Of a DNA stretch of 64,000 bases, positions 38,696 to 53,349 are shown in pieces. The notes below the pieces were generated by a model. That model saw only the letters and a list, made by a program, of their open reading frames with translations. It did not search any database and was not told the DNA's origin. This stretch comes from an uncultured bacterium (GTDB lineage Bacteria > UBP14 > UBA6098 > B30-G16), in NCBI GenBank assembly GCA_964443405.1, contig CAYUDB010000001.1, positions 2,752 to 66,751 of the forward strand. Reading direction: 5' to 3'. The stretch's first letter is position 1, and each line of letters begins with the position of its first letter. Position numbers and translations under genes: made by a program.

Positions 38696-38987
38696 TTTGC
38701 CTCCCTGTGTAGTTTTTTGTGCAATTTACCCCTTCATGACCAAATGCGCAATCAATAAAACGGTGTTCTCGCGTTATTAAAGTTTTACGCAAAAATTTGA
38801 ATGCCGTTTTAACATTTACCACAAGCTATAATGCACAAATTTCAAAAAATGTCAATGCAAATTTTCACTTTTTCAAATTTTTTACTAAAAAATGAAAAAT
38901 GAAGGAATATTTTGCTCAATTTGCGAAACCCATTGTGCGGTGCTTTTTCTTTGTGAAATTGCTGTTTTCTGTTGCTATTCCATAAAA

Positions 38988-40091
38988 ATGCGTCAAATTA
39001 TTCGCATGGACGACAAACTAAAGCTAATACTTGAGGCTTCGGCAAAGCTCGCGGAAGTACGCGACTTGCACACGATACTCATAACCGTAACCGACCTAAC
39101 CAAAAAGCTTTTGGCTGCGGATAGATGCGCGCTTTTTTTGCACGATAAAAAACGCTCCGAATTGTGGACTATTGTGGCACATGGAGTTTCCGAAATTCGC
39201 GTGCCCGATAATGCAGGTGCAGTAGGCGCTGCTTTTCACACGCGGCAAATCATCAATATCCCCGATGCGTACGCCGACAGCCGTTTCAATCCCGAAGTCG
39301 ATAAGCGCACGGGATATCGCACCCGCAATATACTTGCTATGCCCATGTTAAATTTGCAGGATGAAATCATTGGTGTATTTCAGGTTATAAACAAGCTCAC
39401 TTCCGATATTTTTTCGCCCGAAGACATAGACCTGGCACGTTATCTCACTGCATTTGCCGCATCAAATGTAGAAAACGCTTATCTTTACGAGCGGTTGAGG
39501 CTTGCACAACAAGATGTCGTTCATCGACTTTCGCACGCCACGAGTTACAAAGACCCCGAAACCGAAAATCACATTGTCCGTGTTGGGCTATATTGCGAGC
39601 TGATGGCACAAATAATGGGTTTTTCGCCCGAACGCGCGGAACTTGTGAAATTGGCAGCACCAATGCACGATATTGGTAAAGTGGGCATACCCGATCGCAT
39701 TTTGCTCAAGCCCGGCAAACTCGATGCCGATGAATGGGCATTTATGCAAAAGCATGCGCAATTTGGCTTTGAGATTTTGCGCGAAGCCGAAAGTGAGCTT
39801 TTGCAGGTGGCGGCATTAATTGCGCTCGATCATCACGAAAAATGGTCGGGTGGCGGTTACCCAAACGGCAAAATTGGCGCTGATATAACAGTTTACGGGC
39901 GTATGGTGGCTTTGGCGGATGTTTACGATGCGCTCACTTCGAAACGCCCCTACAAAGATGCTTGGTCGCATGAACAGGCTTTTGAGCTTATTGCCACCGA
40001 ATCGGGCAAGCATTTCGACCCAAAACTTGCGGCGATTTTCATCGAAAATGCCGACCGCATAGTTGAGCTTAAGCGCATCTACAAAGACTAA
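38988..40091 (+). CDS. GAF-domain-containing HD-GYP phosphodiesterase (c-di-GMP signalling)
   Basis: GAF N-terminus (CALFLHDKKRSELWTIVAHG...GAVGAAFHTRQIINIPDAY). HD-GYP domain with HD (MHDIGKVGIPD) and GYP (HHEKWSGGGYPNG) motifs. The start is placed at the in-frame ATG at 38988 because the upstream 32 codons are Cys-rich and non-protein-like. Confidence 0.8.
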   Translation: MRQIIRMDDKLKLILEASAKLAEVRDLHTILITVTDLTKKLLAADRCALFLHDKKRSELWTIVAHGVSEIRVPDNAGAVGAAFHTRQIINIPDAYADSRFNPEVDKRTGYRTRNILAMPMLNLQDEIIGVFQVINKLTSDIFSPEDIDLARYLTAFAASNVENAYLYERLRLAQQDVVHRLSHATSYKDPETENHIVRVGLYCELMAQIMGFSPERAELVKLAAPMHDIGKVGIPDRILLKPGKLDADEWAFMQKHAQFGFEILREAESELLQVAALIALDHHEKWSGGGYPNGKIGADITVYGRMVALADVYDALTSKRPYKDAWSHEQAFELIATESGKHFDPKLAAIFIENADRIVELKRIYKD

Positions 40092-43329: not shown

Positions 43330-43360
43330 AAAAAAGCCCTCGGGGAGGTGAGGGCTTTAT
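43330..43360. terminator. Bidirectional terminator hairpin (AGCCCTC-ggggaggt-GAGGGCT) between convergent genes, flanked by A5 and TTAT. It is stronger for the minus-strand kinase gene.
   Basis: 7-bp GC-rich stem seen directly between the stops at 43276 (+) and 43404 (-). Confidence 0.55.
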
Positions 43361-43403: not shown

Positions 43404-44888
43404 TTATTTGCGTTCGGCTGGGAGCCAGACGATGAACTTGGTACCCATGCCAACCTCCGATTCGATATCGATGCGCCCACGGTGCATTTTGACCACGCGT
43501 TGAGCGATAGCCAAGCCCAAACCTGTGCCCTGAATTTTTTTTGTGGCATCAGATTTGACGCGGAAAAATGGGTCAAAAATCGTGGCGACTGCCGATTTTG
43601 GTATGCCTATGCCTGTGTCGGCAACGGTGAGTTCTACGCCATCGCCAGCAATATGCGCGCAAACCGTTACTGTGCCTTCATCTTTGTTGTATTTGATGGC
43701 ATTTGAGACCAAATTTGTGATAAGCTGCATCATAGCGGTTTCATCGGCAGCAATGGGCGGAATTTCGCCAAGTTCAAGCACCACAGTAAGTTTCTTCTCA
43801 AGTGCCGACGATTCGAGCGATGACACAACCTCTTTTACGAGCGCGCCAAAATCGAGTGGCGAGAAATTGCCCTTAAGCTCGGCGGCTTCGGCACGTGTAA
43901 TCGAAAGCAAATCCTTAACCATATCGATTAGCCCTTCGAGCCGGCGTTTCGAGCGCATAAGGTATTCGGTTTTCTTTTCTTCTTCGGTAACGTATCCTTG
44001 TAAAATCATGTCGGTGAAACCGATAACTGCCGCTACGGGTGCTTTAATCTCGTGGCTTACTATGCGCACAAAATTCGATTTGGCGCGATCTAGTTCTGCC
44101 TGATGCGTAACATCTTGCAATATTATTGTTCTGCCGGCTTCCGAACCGTCTTTCGATGGCACGGGAGTTGCGTAAACCGAAAACATTTGTCCTTCGGCAA
44201 GTCCTTCCACTTCAAAAAGTTTTTCATTTTCTTCATTTTCGGGCAATTGGAGCAGTTCGAGCACTGCATCTTTGAGTTTTGATTCGGGCAGTTGCGGTGC
44301 AAGTTGCGATCCTACATCGAGTTTTGAAAGCTGAAGCATCGTTAGCGCTATGCCATTGTAGAGAACGATCTCGCCACGTGTGTTGACTACGAGAACGCCT
44401 TCGCGCAGTGTTGAGAGTATGGATTTTGTGCGTGTGCGTTCTGTGGCAAGTTCCATAAGCCGCTCTTCGCGTTCTTTTCGCAAACGTTCTGCCTCGAGCA
44501 AAAGTCGTCGTCGCTCGGCAACCCTATTTACAACTTGCCGAAGCTGTTGCGGTGTAAACGGTTTTGCCACAAAATCAAATGCACCCTTGCGTGTTGCTTC
44601 CACTGCCGCGTCGAGTGTGGCATAGGCGGTTACTATGAGGAAAACAGAATTTGGGCTTTGGGTGTGGAATTCATCCAAAAGTGTTATGCCATCTACGTCG
44701 GGGAGTTTCAAGTCGAGCAAGTAGATGTCATGGATTTTTTGTGCGGCAATGGCACGTGCGGTCGCACCACTTTCGGCTATGTCCACGTCGAAGCCTTCTG
44801 CCAAAAGTATTCTTTTGCTGCCTTCGCGCATGCCCCATTCGTCATCGACGATGAGCACTCGCATTTTATTTTCGGTTTCGGGTGTCAT
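43404..44888 (-). CDS. Hybrid sensor histidine kinase: N-terminal receiver (REC), PAS-like, HisKA and HATPase_c domains
   Basis: Start placed at ATG 44888 (MTPETENKMRVLIVDDE). REC motifs (LIVDDE...DLKLPDVDG...KPF). HisKA (SHEIKAPVAAVIGF). HATPase (NLVSNAIKY...DTGIGIP...GTGLGLAI). Confidence 0.8.
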   Translation of the reverse strand: MTPETENKMRVLIVDDEWGMREGSKRILLAEGFDVDIAESGATARAIAAQKIHDIYLLDLKLPDVDGITLLDEFHTQSPNSVFLIVTAYATLDAAVEATRKGAFDFVAKPFTPQQLRQVVNRVAERRRLLLEAERLRKEREERLMELATERTRTKSILSTLREGVLVVNTRGEIVLYNGIALTMLQLSKLDVGSQLAPQLPESKLKDAVLELLQLPENEENEKLFEVEGLAEGQMFSVYATPVPSKDGSEAGRTIILQDVTHQAELDRAKSNFVRIVSHEIKAPVAAVIGFTDMILQGYVTEEEKKTEYLMRSKRRLEGLIDMVKDLLSITRAEAAELKGNFSPLDFGALVKEVVSSLESSALEKKLTVVLELGEIPPIAADETAMMQLITNLVSNAIKYNKDEGTVTVCAHIAGDGVELTVADTGIGIPKSAVATIFDPFFRVKSDATKKIQGTGLGLAIAQRVVKMHRGRIDIESEVGMGTKFIVWLPAERK

Positions 44889-44922
44889 GTTATTATGAAT
44901 CTCAGCCAATTGTTTTCGTTGC

Positions 44923-44950
44923 GCGCACTTGCGCAAATTAGCAAGTGCGC
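44923..44950. promoter_or_regulatory. Perfect 10-bp inverted repeat GCGCACTTGC-gcaaatta-GCAAGTGCGC in the 5' leader of the hybrid kinase gene, flanked by an A/T-rich -10-like element. Candidate operator.
   Basis: Seen directly, 35-62 nt upstream of the 44888 start codon on the minus strand. Confidence 0.45.
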
Positions 44951-45073
44951 ATATAAAAATCACTTCGCGCATTCAATTTTGGCTTTTGCCAAACTGCCAA
45001 ATTCTTAAACACTGCGCCAATGGCTTCGCATTTGCTCTGTCGCAAGTGAAGGCAGTTTTGCTTTGGCACAAAA

Positions 45074-45463
45074 CTATTTTTCGAGCAGCTTGCGCAGGCG
45101 TGCCAAAAGGTCGATGGGCGAAATTGGTTTATCGACAAAGTCATCTGCCTTTATCCATTCGCGTTCACCAGCAGAGTCGAGACCAAACGAAAAACCAGTA
45201 ATCGACGCCACTGCAGTGAGCATGAGCAAAGGCATATTCGCAGTGATGGCATTGGCTTTTAGCTTGTGGCACAATACAAAACCTGCGTCGTCGGTTTCCA
45301 TCATGAGGTCCACTATCGCAGCATCTGGGCGCTCGCGAAGCGCAACTTCATATCCGGTGGCACCCGAATTTGCGGTTATAGTCTCGTAACCCGCCGAATT
45401 CAAAACTGCCGACATCTGTTCGCGCAAATCTGGGTCATCGTCCACAATGAGGATTTTCGTCAT
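45074..45463 (-). CDS. Single-domain response regulator (CheY-like REC)
   Basis: ATG at 45463 with AGGAGG RBS. MTKILIVDDDPDLRE...AAIVDLMME...KPI receiver motifs. No output domain. Confidence 0.8.
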   Translation of the reverse strand: MTKILIVDDDPDLREQMSAVLNSAGYETITANSGATGYEVALRERPDAAIVDLMMETDDAGFVLCHKLKANAITANMPLLMLTAVASITGFSFGLDSAGEREWIKADDFVDKPISPIDLLARLRKLLEK

Positions 45464-45531: not shown

Positions 45532-47556
45532 TTATTGAGAATGCATTTCACCAATTAGATTTGTGTCGCCCAAGCCAAAAGGTATTTCAACAGTGATGAC
45601 AGCACCTTTTTCGGGCGCAAGTTTTGATGTGGCACGGATATTGCCTCGGTGCAATTTCACTATGCCATAGGCTATGGCAAGCCCCAAGCCAGTGCCTTTG
45701 CCGATGGGTTTGGTGGTGAAAAACGGTGTGAAAATTCTCGGCAGCACATCATCGGCAATGCCGGCGCCGCTGTCGGAAATTTCGATAATAGCACGAGCGC
45801 CATCTGGTGATTTTCGACAGCTGATTTTGAGTGCGCCGAAACCGCCCATAGCCTCGATGGCGTTTTGAATTATGTTTATGATTACCTGCCGCATTTGGTC
45901 AGAATCGATGTTGATATGTGGCATCTCGGCAAAATCGAACTCAACTTTGACCCCTGCGTTTTTGGAATCGCGTATAAAAGGTTCGACAACTTCGCGCAAA
46001 AAAGCCTGCAAATCGACTTCTGAAAGCACCAGCTTGTTCTGGCGAGCAAAGTTGAGCAAATCGGCAACTATGCGTCGGCAGCGATCGGTTTCGCGCACTA
46101 TAACTTCGATATCCTCACGGCGCGGATCGGTGTTTTCGAAGCTTTCGAGCATAAGGTTCGAATAGAGCAGCACCGTGCCAAGTGGATTATTTACTTCATG
46201 CGCAACACCTGCGGCGAGTTGCCCCATTGCCGCCATTTTTTCGGATTGTATGAGCTGTTTTTGCGCTTCTTTGAGTTGTTTGTGGCTTTCTTCGAGGTCA
46301 CGCACAGCCTTTTCGTGAGCCTCGACTGTGTAGGGTAAGCACATTTCCGATTCGGCAAGCCCTTGTAAAACAGCTATGGCATGTTCGCGACATGTTTTGT
46401 AACCGCATGCACCGCAATCGAGTTCATCGGCACGCACAGTTTTGCCCATGCGCTGAAGCTGAAATTGTATTTGACTTTCGGTAGGTGTGGGCAAAGTGCG
46501 CAAATCGTCACTAAAATTCCGCGACAGGTCGATGTCGGAAACTAAATCCATGTTCGCGCGCCAACGCACCTCGTCAAATTCTTCGGTGCGCTCGCGATAG
46601 TATCGAAGCACATTGTCGCGATGGGCAAAAAGCTTTTCGCGATCTTTAGCTAAAGGTCCGTTAACGCAGCCTTCGCAGAAAAGTAGATCTAAAAAGCGAG
46701 GCTCCATTTCGCCTGCGGCAAAACTGTGCAAAAGTGAGACGATTCGATCTTTGCCTTCGGCGATAAGCAGATCGTTTTTGCTTATGTCGTATTCGATGCC
46801 CGCACTTCGCAGAAGCCCACCCGAAACAGGGAAAAGCGTGCCACGTGAAGGTTGAGGTCCATCGAAAGGCAGCGGCATAGCTTTTGATGTATCGATGCCA
46901 GCTTTTCGGAACATTTCTTTTATCTCGTTGAAAGTGAGCACGATATCGACATCGCCAGCTACTTGTGGCTCGGCGGCTTCAACTTTTTTTGCCACACAAG
47001 GACCCAGAAAAACCACTTTCGATTTTGGGGCAAAAATCTCTTTTACCGCGCGCGCCATGGCTATCATAGGGCTTATAACCGGTGCCAGATTTGGAATGAT
47101 TTCGGGCAAGTATTTTATAACGTAAAACGATATTGCCGGGCAGGGAGTGGCGATTATTGGACTTTTGAGTTTATCGTAAAGACGTTTGTACTCGCGAGCA
47201 ACCATGTCGGCGCCAAAAGCTACTTCCATTACATGCTCAAAACCGAGCACTTTGAGCGCACCTACAAGGCGTTCGGGCGGCTCACAATTTGGAAAAAACG
47301 CCGGAAAGGATGGCGCTACAATGGCGGTTAGCTCATGTGAATTATCCTTGAGCATTTCCCAAACGCGATCGGTGTAGTTTTCGAAGACTTTCGCCTTTTG
47401 ACTGCACACGCGCACGCAGTTACCACAGGAGATGCATCTATCTTCCACTATGAGCGCCTGCCCGCCCACGATTTGGATAGCGTGGGCTGGGCATTCGCGA
47501 ACACAAGTGTAGCATTTACGACATTTTTCGGGTATGGTGTGGACTACTCCACGCAT
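45532..47556 (-). CDS. Sensor histidine kinase with an N-terminal [FeFe]-hydrogenase-like (HydS-like) sensory domain: 2x[4Fe-4S] ferredoxin motifs, an H-cluster-type domain, a Cys-rich linker, HisKA and HATPase_c
   Basis: RBS GGAGGA. CxxCxxCxxxCP twice at the N-terminus. Hydrogenase large-subunit-like region with L1-like ATPCPA, L2-like [10 protein letters not shown] and L3-like [11 protein letters not shown]. Then CGACGYKTC, a coiled coil, an H-box (AHEVNNPLG) and a G-box (DSGAGIA...[10 protein letters not shown]). Confidence 0.75.
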
Positions 47557-47570
47557 TTAATTTTCCTCCA

Positions 47571-49283
47571 TCAAATGCCGAACTCGCCGCGCGGCACATA
47601 ATGTGTGTGCAAAAGATGATGGCTTGTTTCGGAAAGTGGTTTGCCCAAACATTCGCGATAAAGTGCTATGATCTCGGGATTTTCGTGGCTTTTGCGCATG
47701 GGCATGGCACGATCGACCATGTTGAGAGCTTCGATGCGAAGCTTCACCGCTTGCGCATCGGCATAAGGTTGACCGCCACCGTTAATGCAACCGCCCGGGC
47801 ACGCCATTATCTCGATGAAATGAAATTGCTCTCCCGAAACAACGCGCTCCATAAGTGCTTTTGCGGCACCCAAACCCGAAGCTGTGGCAACTTTGAGAAC
47901 CAGCCCGCCCACGGGTATTTCGGCTTCGCGCAAGCCTTCGCCACCAATTTGGCGAAACTCTACTTTTGCAAGTTCTTCATCGGTAATGAGTTTATAAGCC
48001 GTGCGAAGTGCCGCTTCCATAACTCCACCGCTGCGACCAAAAATAACCGCAGCACCTGTCGATGAGCCTAGTGGATGATCGAAATCTTCGTCTGCCATTT
48101 TAGTCAAGTTCACGCCAAATTGCTTCAAAAGCCTTGCTGCTTCGCGAGTTGTGAGGACTGCATCCACATCTTGAATTGAGTCGCTCGAAAGCTCTGGGCG
48201 CTGTGATTCGAATTTTTTGGCAGTGCAGGGCATTATGCTAACTACAAAAACCTTTTTGGGGTCGATGCCAGCTTTTGGTGCCCAACAATGTTTTACAACT
48301 GCACCGAGCATCTCATGCGGCGATTTTGCCGAAGAGACGTTGGGCAAAAGATTTGGAAAATTATGCTCGACAAATTTCACCCAACCGGGGCTGCACGAAG
48401 TGAGCAAAGGAAGTGCGCCACCCTCTTTGATGCGGTGCACAAGCTCGGAACCTTCTTCCATGATAGTGAGGTCGGCGGCGAAATCTGTGTCGAGAACTTT
48501 ATCGAAACCCACGCGGCGAAGCGATGCGGCAAGTTTGCCGGTTACGATGGAACCGGGTGCCATGCCAAACTCTTCGCCAATGGATACGCGAATGGCAGGC
48601 GCCACCTGCACCACCGTTGTGATGTCGGGGTCGGCGAGAGCACGCAAAACTTTATCGAGATGGCTCTTTTCGTGCAATGCGCCTGTGGGACAAACCTTTA
48701 TACATTGACCGCAAAATGTGCACTGTGTAGCGCCCATACTTTGATGAAAAGCAGGCGAAACTGTGCTCTGTGCTCCACGATGAGAGAAATCTATGGCGCC
48801 AACGTGTTGAATTTCGTTGCATACGCGCACGCATTTGCCGCAGAGTATGCACTTTTCGGGTTCGCGCACAAGCGATGGGTTGGCGATATCGGGAAAACGA
48901 CGCTCGTAACCGCGTGGCAATTGCACACGTTCTATATTGTATTGACGCGCAAGTTCTGCAAGCTCGCACATATCCGATTTGAAGCAAGTGGTGCATTCGT
49001 TGGGGTGCGCTGCCAAAAGCATTTCCAAAATCGTGCGACGAGCAAAAAGCACTTTCGGCGAACGAGTTTTAACGTCCATGCCCTCCGAAACCGGAGTGGC
49101 GCAAGATGGCAACAGTCTGCCGCCAACTTCCACAATGCAAATTCTGCATGCGCCCGCAGGGTCCAAGCCTTCGAGATAGCAGAGTGTAGGAATATCGATG
49201 CCGATTTTTTTTGCGGCTTGAAGTATGGTTTCGCCGGCTTCGGCAGTGGTTTTAATACCGTCTATTGTGATGTTCAATGGCAT
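47571..49283 (-). CDS. hydA: [FeFe]-hydrogenase catalytic subunit HydA (N-terminal 2Fe-2S and 4Fe-4S domains plus the H-cluster domain)
   Basis: RBS AAGGAGGTAAAA. H-cluster motifs LTSCSPGWVKF (L1), MPCTAKKFE (L2) and EIMACPGGCINGGGQP (L3). N-terminal ferredoxin-like cysteine clusters. Confidence 0.9.
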   Translation of the reverse strand: MPLNITIDGIKTTAEAGETILQAAKKIGIDIPTLCYLEGLDPAGACRICIVEVGGRLLPSCATPVSEGMDVKTRSPKVLFARRTILEMLLAAHPNECTTCFKSDMCELAELARQYNIERVQLPRGYERRFPDIANPSLVREPEKCILCGKCVRVCNEIQHVGAIDFSHRGAQSTVSPAFHQSMGATQCTFCGQCIKVCPTGALHEKSHLDKVLRALADPDITTVVQVAPAIRVSIGEEFGMAPGSIVTGKLAASLRRVGFDKVLDTDFAADLTIMEEGSELVHRIKEGGALPLLTSCSPGWVKFVEHNFPNLLPNVSSAKSPHEMLGAVVKHCWAPKAGIDPKKVFVVSIMPCTAKKFESQRPELSSDSIQDVDAVLTTREAARLLKQFGVNLTKMADEDFDHPLGSSTGAAVIFGRSGGVMEAALRTAYKLITDEELAKVEFRQIGGEGLREAEIPVGGLVLKVATASGLGAAKALMERVVSGEQFHFIEIMACPGGCINGGGQPYADAQAVKLRIEALNMVDRAMPMRKSHENPEIIALYRECLGKPLSETSHHLLHTHYVPRGEFGI

Positions 49284-49293
49284 TTTTACCTCC

Positions 49294-51246
49294 TTATATT
49301 ACCAAAACCGCACCGAACTTACACACTTCGGCACAAGTTCCGCAGCCTATACATTTTTCTTGCACTATGTGATGCGGATGCTTGGTGGCGCCCAAAATAC
49401 AGCCTACAGGACAATTTTTGGCGCACAAAGTGCATCCCACGCATTTATCGGGGTTTATGGTATATGTTTTGAGAGCAGTGCAACTACCGGCAGGGCATTT
49501 GCGGTCGAAAAGATGTGCTTCGTATTCTTCGCGGTAGTATTTGAGCGTGGAAAGAACGGGGTTTGGTGCTGTTTGACCCAAACCACAGAGCGCTGTTTCG
49601 CGAACTGTTTTTGCCAATTCTTCGAGCTGTGCCAAGCCTTTGAAGCGAGCAAGTATGCCGCCTTCTTCGGGCATGCCCTGACGTGTGGTAAGATTTTCGA
49701 GTATGTGCTTCATGCGACGGGTGCCTTCGCGACATGGCACGCATTTGCCGCATGATTCGTTTGTAGTGAACTCTAAGAAATAACGCGCGATATCGACCAT
49801 GCATGTGCCTTCATCCATGATGACCAGACCGCCGGAACCCATCATGGCGCCGATTTCTTTAAGCGACTCATATTCCACAGGCGTGTTCCATAGTCTCACC
49901 GGAACACAAGCGCCCGAAGGTCCACCTATCTGAACAGCTTTGCAAGGCTTACCTGTAGAGCTTCCGCCACCGATACCATCGACAATCTCGCCAACCGATA
50001 TACCCATAGGTACTTCGACCAAACCTGTGTTGGCTACTTTGCCCGAAAGTGCAAATACTTTGGTACCTGCAGATTTCGACGTGCCAACAGAGTTGAAAGC
50101 CGAAGCACCGTTGGCAATAATCCAACCGACATTGGCGTAAGTTTCAACGTTATTGATGATTGTGGGTTTGCCCCAAAGCCCCGACACTGCCGGATACGGC
50201 GGACGAGGACGAGGTGTGCCACGTTTTCCTTCTATCGATGCGAGTAATGCCGTCTCTTCGCCGCAAACAAAAGCGCCAGCACCCATTTTTATGCGAATTT
50301 CGAAAGAGAAATTTGTGCCGAGTATGTTTTTGCCCAATATGCCTGTCGCATGAGCATCGGCAATTGCTTCGGTAAGTCGTTTTATGGCAAGTGGATATTC
50401 TGCACGACAATAGATGTAACCAACAGATGCACCAATGGCATAACCTGCAATGATGATGCCTTCCAAAGCTTCATGCGGGTCACCTTCCAAAACTGAACGA
50501 TCCATAAAAGCACCAGGGTCGCCTTCGTCGGCGTTCATAACAGCATATTTGACATCGTTTTTTTCTTGAGCAGCCAAACGCCATTTTCTACCGGTAGGAA
50601 AACCGCCGCCGCCTCTACCGCGCAAGCCCGATTTCTCAACTTCGGTGAGAACTTGTTCGGGAGAATACTCAAGTAGCGCTTTTGCCAAACCGCGATATCC
50701 ACCCCAAGCTATGGCTTCGGAGAGATTTGACGGGTCGAAACGACCAATTTTGCCGAGCACTATGCGTCTCTGTTTGGCAAAAAATGGGTGCTCCGGAAAA
50801 GTGGGAATGCCATCTATTGGCTTTTCGCCATCCTCGACTATTTGAACTATTGCCGATTCGGTATCGTGTTCGCCTGTGGCAAGAACACGGTGCACTAAAT
50901 ATTGAACATCGGTGGCACGAAGGTTGCCGTATAATACAGCTGGTTGCCCGGGCAATTTGATTTCGGCAAGAGGTTCCATTTGGCAGAAACCTATACAGCC
51001 TACTTCTTTGAGTTCGGCGCGAACATTGGCACGTTTGAGTTCGGTTTTGAAGGCATCGATAATATCGGCGGCGCCGGTGGCAAGACCGCAGGTGCTTGTG
51101 CCGATAAGTATGGATGTTGTGTTGCCTGCGGTGCGTCTGCGCAAACGCAGCGATTCGGTTTGTGCTTCGGCGCTGGAAATTGCCCAGAGCAAAAACGGTT
51201 GTGTGCTACCCGAAGCGGTATATTTTTCGAAAAGTGTGCCTTTCAT
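49294..51246 (-). CDS. hydB: NuoF-like flavoprotein subunit HydB of the trimeric (bifurcating-type) hydrogenase (FMN/NAD(H) site, 4Fe-4S; N-terminal thioredoxin-like and C-terminal 2x[4Fe-4S] domains)
   Basis: RBS AGGGAGG. GGGGFPTGRKW FMN motif, a NuoF-type 4Fe-4S cysteine cluster (ESCGKCVPCREG), and C-terminal CxxCxxCxxxCP pairs. Overlaps hydC by 4 nt (ATGA). Confidence 0.88.
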   Translation of the reverse strand: MKGTLFEKYTASGSTQPFLLWAISSAEAQTESLRLRRRTAGNTTSILIGTSTCGLATGAADIIDAFKTELKRANVRAELKEVGCIGFCQMEPLAEIKLPGQPAVLYGNLRATDVQYLVHRVLATGEHDTESAIVQIVEDGEKPIDGIPTFPEHPFFAKQRRIVLGKIGRFDPSNLSEAIAWGGYRGLAKALLEYSPEQVLTEVEKSGLRGRGGGGFPTGRKWRLAAQEKNDVKYAVMNADEGDPGAFMDRSVLEGDPHEALEGIIIAGYAIGASVGYIYCRAEYPLAIKRLTEAIADAHATGILGKNILGTNFSFEIRIKMGAGAFVCGEETALLASIEGKRGTPRPRPPYPAVSGLWGKPTIINNVETYANVGWIIANGASAFNSVGTSKSAGTKVFALSGKVANTGLVEVPMGISVGEIVDGIGGGSSTGKPCKAVQIGGPSGACVPVRLWNTPVEYESLKEIGAMMGSGGLVIMDEGTCMVDIARYFLEFTTNESCGKCVPCREGTRRMKHILENLTTRQGMPEEGGILARFKGLAQLEELAKTVRETALCGLGQTAPNPVLSTLKYYREEYEAHLFDRKCPAGSCTALKTYTINPDKCVGCTLCAKNCPVGCILGATKHPHHIVQEKCIGCGTCAEVCKFGAVLVI

Positions 51247-51713
51247 TTTTTCGCACCTCCCTTAAGCGCGTCCACGAGCTGCAAAATGCCATTGGGTGTC
51301 ATGTGCCCGTAAAATTTGTCGTCGATCATTATTGCCGGCGCAATGGAGCACGAACCCAAACACGCCACCTCTTCGATAGTGAAAAACCCATCTTTGGTCG
51401 TCTCGCCCGATTTCACGCCGAGGTGTTTGCACAAGAGATCTAATATTTTTGCGCTGCCCTTAACATGACAGGCTGTGCCGCGACAAACACGAATTATGTG
51501 CTTGCCCGGGGCGTTGAGCTTGAACTGGTTGTAAAACGTTACCACGCCAAAAATGCGGGCGGGCGTCGTTTCGAGTTTGCGCGCAACCTCGAACACCGCC
51601 TCTTGCGGAATGTAACCGGCTATTTCCTGCACCTTTTGCAGAACAGGAATTATCGAATCCTGCTTGCCGGCTTCGAGGTCGTCTATTATCATTTTGATGC
51701 GGTCATCGAGCAT
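51243..51713 (-). CDS. hydC: NuoE-like thioredoxin-fold 2Fe-2S subunit HydC
   Basis: RBS AGGGAGG. 2Fe-2S ligands in a CRGTAC...CLGSC arrangement. 156 aa. Confidence 0.85.
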   Translation of the reverse strand: MLDDRIKMIIDDLEAGKQDSIIPVLQKVQEIAGYIPQEAVFEVARKLETTPARIFGVVTFYNQFKLNAPGKHIIRVCRGTACHVKGSAKILDLLCKHLGVKSGETTKDGFFTIEEVACLGSCSIAPAIMIDDKFYGHMTPNGILQLVDALKGGAKK

Positions 51714-51767: not shown

Positions 51768-51785
51768 AAGCAGCTTTTGTGCCAT
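51768..51785 (-). promoter_or_regulatory. Candidate sigma-54 (-24/-12) promoter of the hydCBA-kinase operon: minus-strand TGGCAC-aaaag-CTGCT, ~55 nt upstream of the hydC ATG
   Basis: Reverse complement of 51770-51784 reads aTGGCACaaaagCTGCt, with the canonical GG-N10-GC spacing. A sigma-54 activator gene is encoded divergently 280 bp away. Confidence 0.5.
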
Positions 51786-51993: not shown

Positions 51994-53349
51994 ATGGATC
52001 AAAAAGAAATTCACATAGCGGTTGTAGATGACAACACACAGATGCGCGGCGTTTTGTCGCATGCGCTAGCTGTGGATGGTTATAGCGTGGAGAGTTTTCC
52101 CGACGGCAGAAGCTTTTTGGAAAGCTTTTCGCCAAACAAGTATCACCTTGTGTTGCTTGATCTTATGATGCCAGACATAACAGGAATCGAGGTAGTGCAT
52201 TTGGCGCGGCAAATCGACCCATTTGCTGTGATTGTCATTGTAACCGGTTATAGCAGCAACGAGAATATAGTTGAAGCCATTCGCGCGGGTGCCTTTGATG
52301 TGCTTTCAAAACCATTCAACCTCGATGAACTTAGATTGATGTTGCACAAAGCGTTACGTCAATCCAAGATCAACATTGAGCTTGCCGCCGCACGCGTGGA
52401 AAATTTTGAAGATAGCTTTCACGGGCTTCTGGGGCGATCGTCTGAGATGCGCCGCATTTTCCAAAAAGTGCGGCAAATTGCCGCGCGCGACGTAACTGTT
52501 TTAATTCAGGGTGCATCCGGCACGGGAAAGGAGCTTTTGGCGCGCGCAATACATAAAATATCGCACAGAGCGCTAAAACCTTTTGTAGCAGTCAATTGCG
52601 GCGCCATACCCGAAACGCTCATCGACGCTGAACTTTTTGGTTTCAAGAAAGGTGCTTTCACCGGCGCTGTTGCAAACCGTGATGGACTAATACGTTCGGC
52701 TGCAGGCGGCACACTGTTTTTGGATGAAATTGGCGATTTGCCACAGCCAACGCAACTGCGCCTGCTGCGTTTTTTGCAGGAAAAAGAGGTGAGACCAGTA
52801 GGTTCGGACGAGACTTTTACTGTGGACGTGCGTGTTATTTCTGCCACAAACCGCGATCTTGCCGACCTTGTGGAGAAAAACGTCTTCCGCGACGACCTTT
52901 ATTACCGCCTGAGCGTTGTGCCGATAACTTTGCCAACTTTAGTCGCGCGGCGCGAGGACATACCACTTTTGACTGCACATTTCATTGAGAAAGTTTCGCG
53001 ACGGCATAGCATACAGCCACCGCGCATCGAACCCGATGCAATGGAATCACTTGTGAGATATCATTGGCCTGGCAATGTGCGACAGCTCGAAAACGTAGTT
53101 GAGCGGCTTGCTGTTTTCGCAACAGATTGCAGCATAAGGCTTTCCGACTTGCCGGAAGAAATTCGCGAGTATGGTAAAACACTTGCCACAATGGAAGTGC
53201 CATTGGGTTTAACTCTCGACGAACTGGAACGCTGGTACATTTCGCGTATCTTGTTGCGTGTCAATGGAAATCGCACACAAGCGGCAGAACTTTTAGGCAT
53301 CGATAGGCGCACATTACAACGCAAGCTCGCCGAATGGGGCAAACCGTGA
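51994..53349 (+). CDS. Sigma-54-dependent transcriptional regulator (NtrC family: REC, AAA+ sigma-54 activation domain, Fis-type HTH)
   Basis: REC (IAVVDDN...DLMMPD...KPF). AAA+ with GAFTGA (FKKGAFTGA) and Walker A (GASGTGKE). C-terminal HTH (QAAELLGIDRRTLQRKL). Confidence 0.9.
   Translation: MDQKEIHIAVVDDNTQMRGVLSHALAVDGYSVESFPDGRSFLESFSPNKYHLVLLDLMMPDITGIEVVHLARQIDPFAVIVIVTGYSSNENIVEAIRAGAFDVLSKPFNLDELRLMLHKALRQSKINIELAAARVENFEDSFHGLLGRSSEMRRIFQKVRQIAARDVTVLIQGASGTGKELLARAIHKISHRALKPFVAVNCGAIPETLIDAELFGFKKGAFTGAVANRDGLIRSAAGGTLFLDEIGDLPQPTQLRLLRFLQEKEVRPVGSDETFTVDVRVISATNRDLADLVEKNVFRDDLYYRLSVVPITLPTLVARREDIPLLTAHFIEKVSRRHSIQPPRIEPDAMESLVRYHWPGNVRQLENVVERLAVFATDCSIRLSDLPEEIREYGKTLATMEVPLGLTLDELERWYISRILLRVNGNRTQAAELLGIDRRTLQRKLAEWGKP

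Follow-up and report, generated by a model that had tools for sequence, protein, structure and literature searches.

The ability of group C and D [FeFe]-hydrogenases to sense H2, and the way in which they would transfer a signal, are still debated. Reviews and papers from 2024-2026 define group C by a PAS domain (PMC11216029, PMC13104023), and a C-terminal [4Fe-4S] site with the motif Cx2Cx4Cx16C is common to groups C (M2f) and D (M2e) (PMC8163306, PMC13104023). Forms linked to a histidine kinase have been recorded as well. HydDB defines an [FeFe] group C1 'histidine kinase-linked (putative)' (PMC5037454), Meheust et al. described in groundwater Elusimicrobia a trimeric group A enzyme beside a group C hydrogenase with a PAS-less histidine kinase fusion (bioRxiv 10.1101/765248), and a 2024 study of Hydrogenedentota reported a 'T subunit' with a histidine kinase domain that is encoded with A3 hydrogenases (PMC11406978). 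Here we explore one such gene, hydS-HK, located in a window of 64,000 nucleotides of contig CAYUDB010000001.1 (assembly GCA_964443405.1), from an uncultured bacterium of the UBP14 lineage. The SerRS of this bacterium has no database match above 66% identity, and the closest named lineages are Zixibacteria and TA06. The open reading frame starts with ATG, occupies 45532..47556 on the minus strand and encodes a 674-aa histidine kinase. Its Pfam domains and homologues suggest a cytoplasmic sensor that takes its input from a putative sensory [FeFe]-hydrogenase module of the group C type. Most likely this hydrogenase-like input reports hydrogen or redox state and controls the hydrogenase operon to which the gene itself belongs. 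To the more precise reading, in which the kinase responds to H2 and acts back on its own hydrogenase operon and the signal leaves the cluster module via the helix between C406 and His453, we assign a probability of about 60%. The kinase-fused sensor family is already classified and very common, and the window gene is one ordinary member of it. The novelty implied by a first-pass annotation, made from the DNA letters, therefore falls: HydDB group C1 exists (PMC5037454), the fusion is very common and two genome papers had noted it.

A tblastn search of plasmids identified HydS from the Ruminococcus albus 7 megaplasmid, with 36% identity over residues 11-409; its gene is followed by a SpoIIE phosphatase gene and then by HydA2. 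HydS of R. albus and of Thermotoga maritima resemble the window kinase in having an N-terminal 2x[4Fe-4S] domain and an H-domain in which Gly takes the M353 position (CpI numbering), in the loss of the canonical proton pathway and in being linked to catalytic hydrogenase genes, and in R. albus the C-terminal Cx2Cx4Cx16C segment is near-identical. Both differ by a PAS domain after the C-terminal cluster, a SpoIIE/PP2C phosphatase partner and a CxxxC L3 motif, whereas in the window kinase a helix leads to HisKA/HATPase, L3 is CxxC and the C299 position holds Pro rather than Ala or Cys. Since the sensor region is shared with R. albus HydS and is then followed, in the window protein and its relatives, by a helix and an H-box, we consider the window protein a putative group C-type sensor in which the PAS-phosphatase output would have been replaced by a fused transmitter.

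The classification is supported by several group C traits, namely the ferredoxin-type and C-terminal Cys motifs, the replaced relay Cys, the small residue at the M353 position and the linkage of hydrogenase and signalling genes; the PAS domain that in group C (M2f) follows the C-terminal cluster is absent. TamHydS from Thermoanaerobacter mathranii, of group D (M2e), likewise lacks PAS and has Cx2Cx4Cx16C as well as Leu at the M497 position, and its genomic context is similar, with an adjoining trimeric bifurcating hydrogenase and a kinase-like ATPase gene nearby (PMC8163306). It differs in being a stand-alone protein, and group D has Ser/Thr at M353 where the window protein has Gly and a transmitter of its own (PMC8163306); neither of these two group D traits is thus found in the window protein. 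The HydDB C1, 'BfuT' and Elusimicrobia proteins are alike in being group C-like monomers with a kinase or HATPase beside a trimeric A3 enzyme. Those reports stay at the annotation level, and the CxxC signature, helix coupling and multi-output modularity discussed below are not described there. HydDB places the homologue WP_006928132.1, which has a histidine kinase domain, in C3 (PMC11406978), and the assignment of the window protein to either C1 or C3 is uncertain. The same logic, in which a slow hydrogenase detects H2 and informs a histidine kinase in control of hydrogenase genes, is known from HoxBC-HoxJ of the group 2b [NiFe] enzymes (PMC5037454). That system has an unrelated metal site and fold and keeps sensor and kinase on separate polypeptides, hence the likeness is one of function and not of ancestry.

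An H-domain with altered motifs joined to a transmitter

All features of the kinase lie on the minus strand. The N-terminal 2x[4Fe-4S] ferredoxin-type domain (residues 4-55, 47392..47547) is recognised by Pfam Fer4 families and contains C12/15/18/22, followed by P, and C41/44/47/51, both with spacing x2, x2, x3; all eight Cys are invariant in the homologue alignment. The H-domain (residues 76-301, 46654..47331) matches Fe_hyd_lg_C (PF02906) with E = 1.4e-49 and 169 bits, the cut-off being 22. The pair of ferredoxin-type motifs and the H-domain-like region seen in the first pass are therewith both recovered by Pfam, as a dicluster domain and Fe_hyd_lg_C respectively. Downstream, PF04060 ('putative Fe-S cluster') covers residues 379-408, and the cysteine map gives C381-x2-C384-x4-C389-x16-C406 (46339..46416), an exact Cx2Cx4Cx16C motif and predicted fourth [4Fe-4S] site. 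The extra junction cluster that had been written as CGACGYKTC is hence real, but its exact motif is Cx2Cx4Cx16C and had already been described (PMC8163306, PMC13104023). In total four Fe-S/H-cluster sites are predicted in the sensor module: two ferredoxin-type, one in the H-domain and the C-terminal one.

The transmitter (45577..46227) consists of HisKA (residues 444-506, E = 2.8e-15) and HATPase_c (551-660, E = 7.2e-23) and is NtrB/AtoS/ZraS-like according to Pfam and NCBIfam, with AtoS and ZraS as best partial NCBIfam matches. AtoS and ZraS are partners of sigma-54 activators. The phospho-acceptor H453 (codon 46198-46200) is invariant in 40 sequences, and so are N565 of the N motif, D595/G597/G599 of G1, F609/P611/F612 of F and G621/G623/G625 of G2. 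A Pfam scan at E <= 0.01 found no PAS domain in the kinase, in agreement with the earlier remark that none intervenes.

The AlphaFold2 model of residues 1-420 has a mean pLDDT of 90.3 and a pTM of 0.88. In Foldseek its best 50 PDB matches are without exception [FeFe]-hydrogenases, at TMq 0.62-0.71 and a probability of 1.0, with TMq 0.69-0.71 for DdH, CpI and HydABC. The first pass had named membership of residues 60-330 in a non-hydrogenase family as the finding that would speak against it; Pfam and the top 50 Foldseek matches both return hydrogenases.

Motifs were aligned by phmmer against solved structures, using HydA of Thermoanaerobacter kivui (PDB 8a6t_A) as reference. L1, ATPCPA (P138 and C139, 47134..47151), stands opposite TSCCPS, with P138 at the position of Cys299, so the proton-relay Cys is indeed lacking, as the first pass had it. 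L2, GPCVAKKVE (G185, C187, K190 and E193, 46978..47004), stands opposite MPCIGKKFE and retains its cysteine motif, again as proposed. L3, FCEGCVNGP (C294 and C297, 46654..46680), shows FCE-GC opposite ACPGGC, a deletion of a single residue that yields CxxC instead of CxxxC and confirms the short spacing that had been read from the translation. C139, C187, C294 and C297 align with CpI C300, C355, C499 and C503, such that the four H-cluster Cys are present. The kinase nevertheless departs from the canonical catalytic signatures TSCCPxW, MPCxxKxxE and ExMxCxxxCxxGGGQP with relay Cys299. The canonical proton pathway is broken, with P138 replacing C299, A158 replacing S319 and R125 replacing E282, and the M353 and M497 positions are taken by G185 and L292. 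On account of this missing pathway and of the fused transmitter, we reject the reading as a catalytic hydrogenase.

Conservation was determined in the 120 best database relatives, which have 45-62% identity and all share the architecture (120/120). Their L1 reads (T/S/A)(T/S)PCPA, with Pro in 107 and Cys in all 120, and their L2 reads GPC(I/V)AKKxE, with C187 in 120 and K190 in 119. L3 is LLFCEGC(I/V)xGP, in which C294, G296 and C297 are each found in 120/120, hence the CxxC spacing is without exception in this set. The C-terminal motif likewise keeps its four Cys without exception. Because the motifs are near-invariant in these relatives they are under purifying selection rather than in decay, and 'degenerate', the term of the first pass, does not suit an H-cluster fold that is better considered divergent. 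A pseudogenised or decaying hydrogenase is rejected on the same ground.

The residues of the pocket that would hold the diiron site are conserved as well. Among the 120 relatives P82, S83, P163 and E193 vary little or not at all. By alignment via the window HydA and with CpI numbering, we take P82-S83 to be CpI P231-S232, P163 to be P324, K190 to be K358 and E193 to be E361, residues that presumably contact the CO/CN ligands at the diiron site. Such pocket residues are kept about as strongly as in PAS-type HydS. This conservation speaks for a genuine, slow H-cluster rather than a bare cubane, although it falls short of proof. TmHydS likewise has Gly at the M353 position and TamHydS has Leu at M497, and both proteins assemble an H-cluster (PMC8163306, PMC10055695). 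In HydDB group C, Pro occupies the C299 position in ~10% and Gly the M353 position in ~51% (PMC10055695). Pro138 apart, the non-Cys substitutions each have a precedent in an H-cluster-binding HydS.

The short-loop module and its distribution

An exhaustive HMMER search with the 420-aa sensor module matched 980 clusters (50% identity) at E <= 1e-30. Among the best 150 of the 980 cluster representatives, L3 is CxxxC in 46/46 PAS-type proteins with a detectable L3, whereas the kinase-fused proteins show 32 CxxC and two CCxGC, the latter with the same loop length. Directly fused sensors are told apart from PAS-type HydS, which have CxxxC, by their CxxC spacing. The H-domain alignment holds 80 short-loop sequences in total. 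In a neighbour-joining tree built without the L3 columns all 80 fall on one side, and 57 long-loop (CxxxC) sequences, essentially the PAS-type set, fall on the other side together with P0253, in 63/100 bootstraps. Since the group A and B outgroups fall on the short-loop side, the tree is read as an unrooted split and not as a strictly monophyletic short-loop set.

The short-loop module has more than one kind of output. It is fused to GGDEF (P0122, P0126), to GGDEF plus HD-GYP (P0187), to sigma-54 AAA+ activators with or without PAS (P0140, P0144, P0148, P0161, P0172, P0248) and to a methyl-accepting chemotaxis protein (MCP) signalling domain (P0164). Promiscuous fusion is typical of a self-contained, portable input domain, which strengthens the interpretation as a sensor.

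The connection to the kinase core is modelled as a single helix. In the full-length AlphaFold2 model (mean pLDDT 80, lower in the monomeric DHp) DSSP assigns one uninterrupted helix to residues 407-472 (46141..46338), running from C406 into DHp. The last cluster ligand, C406, caps this predicted helix, which spans the interval of 46 residues between C406 and His453. The CxxC split, the multi-output module and the C406-His453 helix may be new points, given that none of the CxxC signature, multi-output fusion or helix coupling was found in the searchable literature, whose coverage is incomplete.

Relatives are widespread. A scan of one genome per species found at least 73 loci, each from a different species, in many phyla. 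The matches listed, to which the taxa and the locus counts given here and below refer, include Ignavibacteria, Melioribacter, Bacteroidales, Planctomycetota (Kuenenia, Phycisphaerae), Hydrogenedentota, Myxococcota, Thermoleophilia, Acidobacteriota, Verrucomicrobiota, Spirochaetes, Smithella, Clostridia, Elusimicrobiota, KSB1, Marinimicrobia and others. Denominators count the loci with enough flanking DNA. In 65/66 loci the sensor is joined to its kinase half. Directly upstream, in the orientation of the kinase gene, 41/57 loci have a group A HydA gene; in 7/57 this gene is placed elsewhere in the locus, and in 9/57 it is not found within 8 kb; HydCBA are all upstream in 35/49, and a receiver-domain gene follows the kinase in 54/60. 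The order hydC-hydB-hydA-histidine kinase-response regulator was found in 4/4 loci of four phyla, namely those of Zixibacteria, Calditrichia, Spirochaetota and a Brocadia-like metagenome-assembled genome (MAG), often with a REC-(PAS)-kinase hybrid next; the gene order of the window is matched in L005 and L007. HydG/E/F genes lie near two of these four loci.

Two variations in gene content were observed. In Ignavibacteria/Melioribacter (L015, L017, L019, L031, L035, L075, L080) the kinase gene lies between two HydCBA sets, of which the upstream set has ~52% and the downstream set ~43% identity to the window HydA; a canonical TSCCPGW L1 is present among these loci. One sensor may there preside over two bifurcating hydrogenases. 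In the Brocadia-like MAG (GCA_035389845.1) the region L007:409-3190, upstream of hydCBA, encodes a 386-aa protein with Fer4, a weak Fe_hyd_lg_C match and an FeS domain, together with a stand-alone HATPase_c gene, which recalls the group D TamHydS context. Because of this Fer4/Fe_hyd_lg_C protein and the HATPase_c gene, the L007 locus is predicted to have two different hydrogenase-like sensors.

The hyd operon of the window

The kinase gene belongs to a six-gene unit of ~8.4 kb on the minus strand, delimited by a sigma-54-like site and a terminator-like hairpin. Its first gene is hydC (51243..51713), encoding a NuoE-like [2Fe-2S] subunit (Pfam 2Fe-2S_thioredx, E = 1.1e-50). It overlaps by 4 nt with hydB (49294..51246), which encodes a NuoF-like flavoprotein subunit (Pfam Complex1_51K, NADH_4Fe-4S and Fer4), and 10 nt separate the end of hydB from the start of hydA (47571..49283). 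HydA belongs, as catalytic subunit, to a trimeric [FeFe]-hydrogenase that is NADH-dependent and of the bifurcating type; with NCBIfam NF040763 it reaches 826 bits, the cut-off being 765, and with HydA of T. kivui (8a6t_A) E = 2.6e-193. The kinase starts 14 nt past the end of hydA. It is followed by a stand-alone receiver-domain response regulator (45074..45463; Pfam Response_reg), with probable start ATG 45463 in an open reading frame listed from 45526, and by the last gene of the operon, a hybrid REC-PAS-HisKA-HATPase kinase (43404..44972; Pfam). Directly 3' of the latter gene lies a strong intrinsic-terminator-like hairpin with nine pairs and a T tract (43333..43358, minus strand).

The adjoining HydA had been thought to keep all canonical motifs. 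Its L1 is however TSCSPGW, with Ser (AGC codon 48390-48392) at the position of the [4Fe-4S]H ligand Cys. Among the HydA genes of related loci (T/S)SCSP is found in 50/66 L1 instances. HydA1 of Acetobacterium woodii has the same substitution (Ser301), is active and shows an H-cluster infrared signature without apparent change (PMC10021017). In view of these two observations a sequencing error is rejected.

A sigma-54 -24/-12-like element with GG-N10-GC spacing, TGGCACAAAAGCTGCT (51769..51784, minus strand), is located ~56 nt upstream of the hydC ATG. At the background rate in related loci ~0.002 chance matches of the pattern are expected in the 281-nt intergenic region. Beyond it, on the plus strand, a divergent gene (51994..53349) encodes an NtrC-type sigma-54 activator response regulator with REC-AAA+-HTH_8 architecture (Pfam, NCBIfam). 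This activator is a plausible terminal step of the signal in the organism of the window. Some ~3.3 kb beyond the terminator, a GAF and HD-GYP-type (HD_5) protein (38892-40091, plus strand) is a likely cyclic-di-GMP phosphodiesterase.

A probable hydrogen sensor and its rivals

The first pass had proposed a sensory, non-catalytic input wired to HisKA/HATPase. All computational evidence is consistent with that core call, in view of the 36% identity to R. albus HydS, the loss of the relay Cys and the synteny with HydABC, and the overall interpretation that had been built on it is partly supported. In the reading that we favour, H2 from the co-transcribed HydABC would react slowly at a modified H-cluster, presumably the cofactor here, that has neither the relay Cys nor the canonical proton pathway, upon which the H-domain and C-terminal cluster domain would shift in their redox or conformational state. 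As the continuous helix that carries His453 is capped by C406, the shift could be transferred mechanically to DHp/His453 in the kinase core, with no PAS intermediary. Phosphoryl groups would then pass to the adjoining stand-alone receiver, to the receiver of the downstream REC-PAS-kinase, or to both. The signal probably ends at the divergent NtrC-type activator, which would act on the sigma-54 promoter before hydC and thereby close a feedback loop on hydCBA-hydS expression, for which the sign of regulation and the partner specificity are conjectural.

Several findings weigh against this scheme. CxxC alters the loop that bears the Cys bridging [4Fe-4S]H to [2Fe]H, and it is absent from PAS-type HydS, among which TmHydS was placed by its reported domain architecture. 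P1-P3 motifs were not recognisable in the HATPase-bearing C1 proteins of Hydrogenedentota, for which H2 sensing was doubted (PMC11406978), and a CpI M497L variant failed to integrate [2Fe]H properly (cited in PMC10055695). The TamHydS C-terminal cluster is not reduced by H2 (PMC13104023), which makes a redox relay doubtful and favours a conformational over an electron-relay role. A search for biochemical work on kinase-fused short-loop members found none in the searchable literature. Regarding the regulatory end of the scheme, just 2/39 related loci have a sigma-54 motif upstream of hydC, and just 5/73 have a full NtrC-type regulator at a distance of up to 8 kb; given these counts, sigma-54 control is treated as a probable lineage-specific feature rather than a family trait. 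Tblastn of the 64-kb window found no HydE/F/G. Maturase genes are often located elsewhere, so their absence from the window says little.

Some of these points also serve a rival explanation, in which the H-domain binds only [4Fe-4S], as in Nar1/NARFL, and four cubanes report the reduction state of ferredoxin or HydABC. Electrons could plausibly enter such a redox sensor through its N-terminal ferredoxin domain, the bridging-Cys loop is one residue shorter, the relay Cys and the pathway residues are replaced (P138, and A158 and R125 at S319 and E282), and both the Leu at the M497 position, with the CpI variant just mentioned, and the doubted P1-P3 motifs fit as well. K190, E193, P82-S83 and P163 have however no obvious role at a bare cubane, yet are strongly kept, and CxxC, normal for two ligands of one cubane, is compatible with a bridging thiolate. 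Moreover, TamHydS forms an H-cluster despite its Leu at the M497 position (PMC8163306). We therefore regard a cubane-only redox sensor as possible but doubtful. Still less probable is that the protein is primarily a stoichiometric regulatory subunit of HydABC that docks, senses electron load or modulates activity, kinase signalling being secondary. In favour of this, the equivalent protein has been labelled subunit T ('BfuT') of the sub-type V BfuABC of Hydrogenedentota (PMC11406978), and the role agrees with the 14 nt between hydA and the kinase gene, in one operon and in an order kept in most relatives. It sits poorly with the loci in which HydA is placed elsewhere (7/57) or is absent within 8 kb (9/57) and with the presence of the module on GGDEF, sigma-54 and MCP proteins, which are unlikely enzyme subunits, while the literature consulted reports no experimental co-purification. 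Docking to HydABC is in itself compatible with sensing of either H2 or redox state. Finally, the clusters could detect O2, NO or CO by damage or ligand binding at Fe-S or H-cluster sites and switch off an oxygen-sensitive hydrogenase operon. Four clusters are predicted and Fe-S clusters are in general common O2/NO sensors (PMC13104023), but there is no specific support in this case, and the conserved diiron pocket and the linkage to hydrogenase in strict anaerobes fit H2 or redox better, for which reason we deem this very improbable.

For the family as a whole we tentatively suggest, as a possibility that we hold to be somewhat doubtful, that the short-loop H-domain, with CxxC and usually Pro at the Cys299 position, constitutes a distinct lineage of portable cytoplasmic sensors. 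Its metal site would be unlike every studied H-cluster, either a strained or re-geometried [4Fe-4S]-S-[2Fe] or a cubane only, and in many phyla of anaerobes it would be joined without PAS to kinases, diguanylate cyclases, sigma-54 activators and chemoreceptors. Should the short-loop module bind H2, no known H2-sensing input domain would be more widespread, and its readout would be built in.

The 2026 study of TamHydS closes by asking for interaction partners and the signalling mechanism (PMC13104023). Because the kinase-fused form has an output of its own, H2-dependent autophosphorylation and phosphotransfer would be directly measurable in vitro, which neither TmHydS nor TamHydS by itself would allow, and the kinase-fused short-loop sensors would be the most tractable system for testing H2 sensing by 'sensory' [FeFe]-hydrogenases. 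A genetically encoded, H2-responsive two-component system would in addition be a useful biosensor part. Given its abundance in fermenters, syntrophs, anammox bacteria and candidate phyla, the family probably controls the production of H2 in many ecosystems without oxygen.

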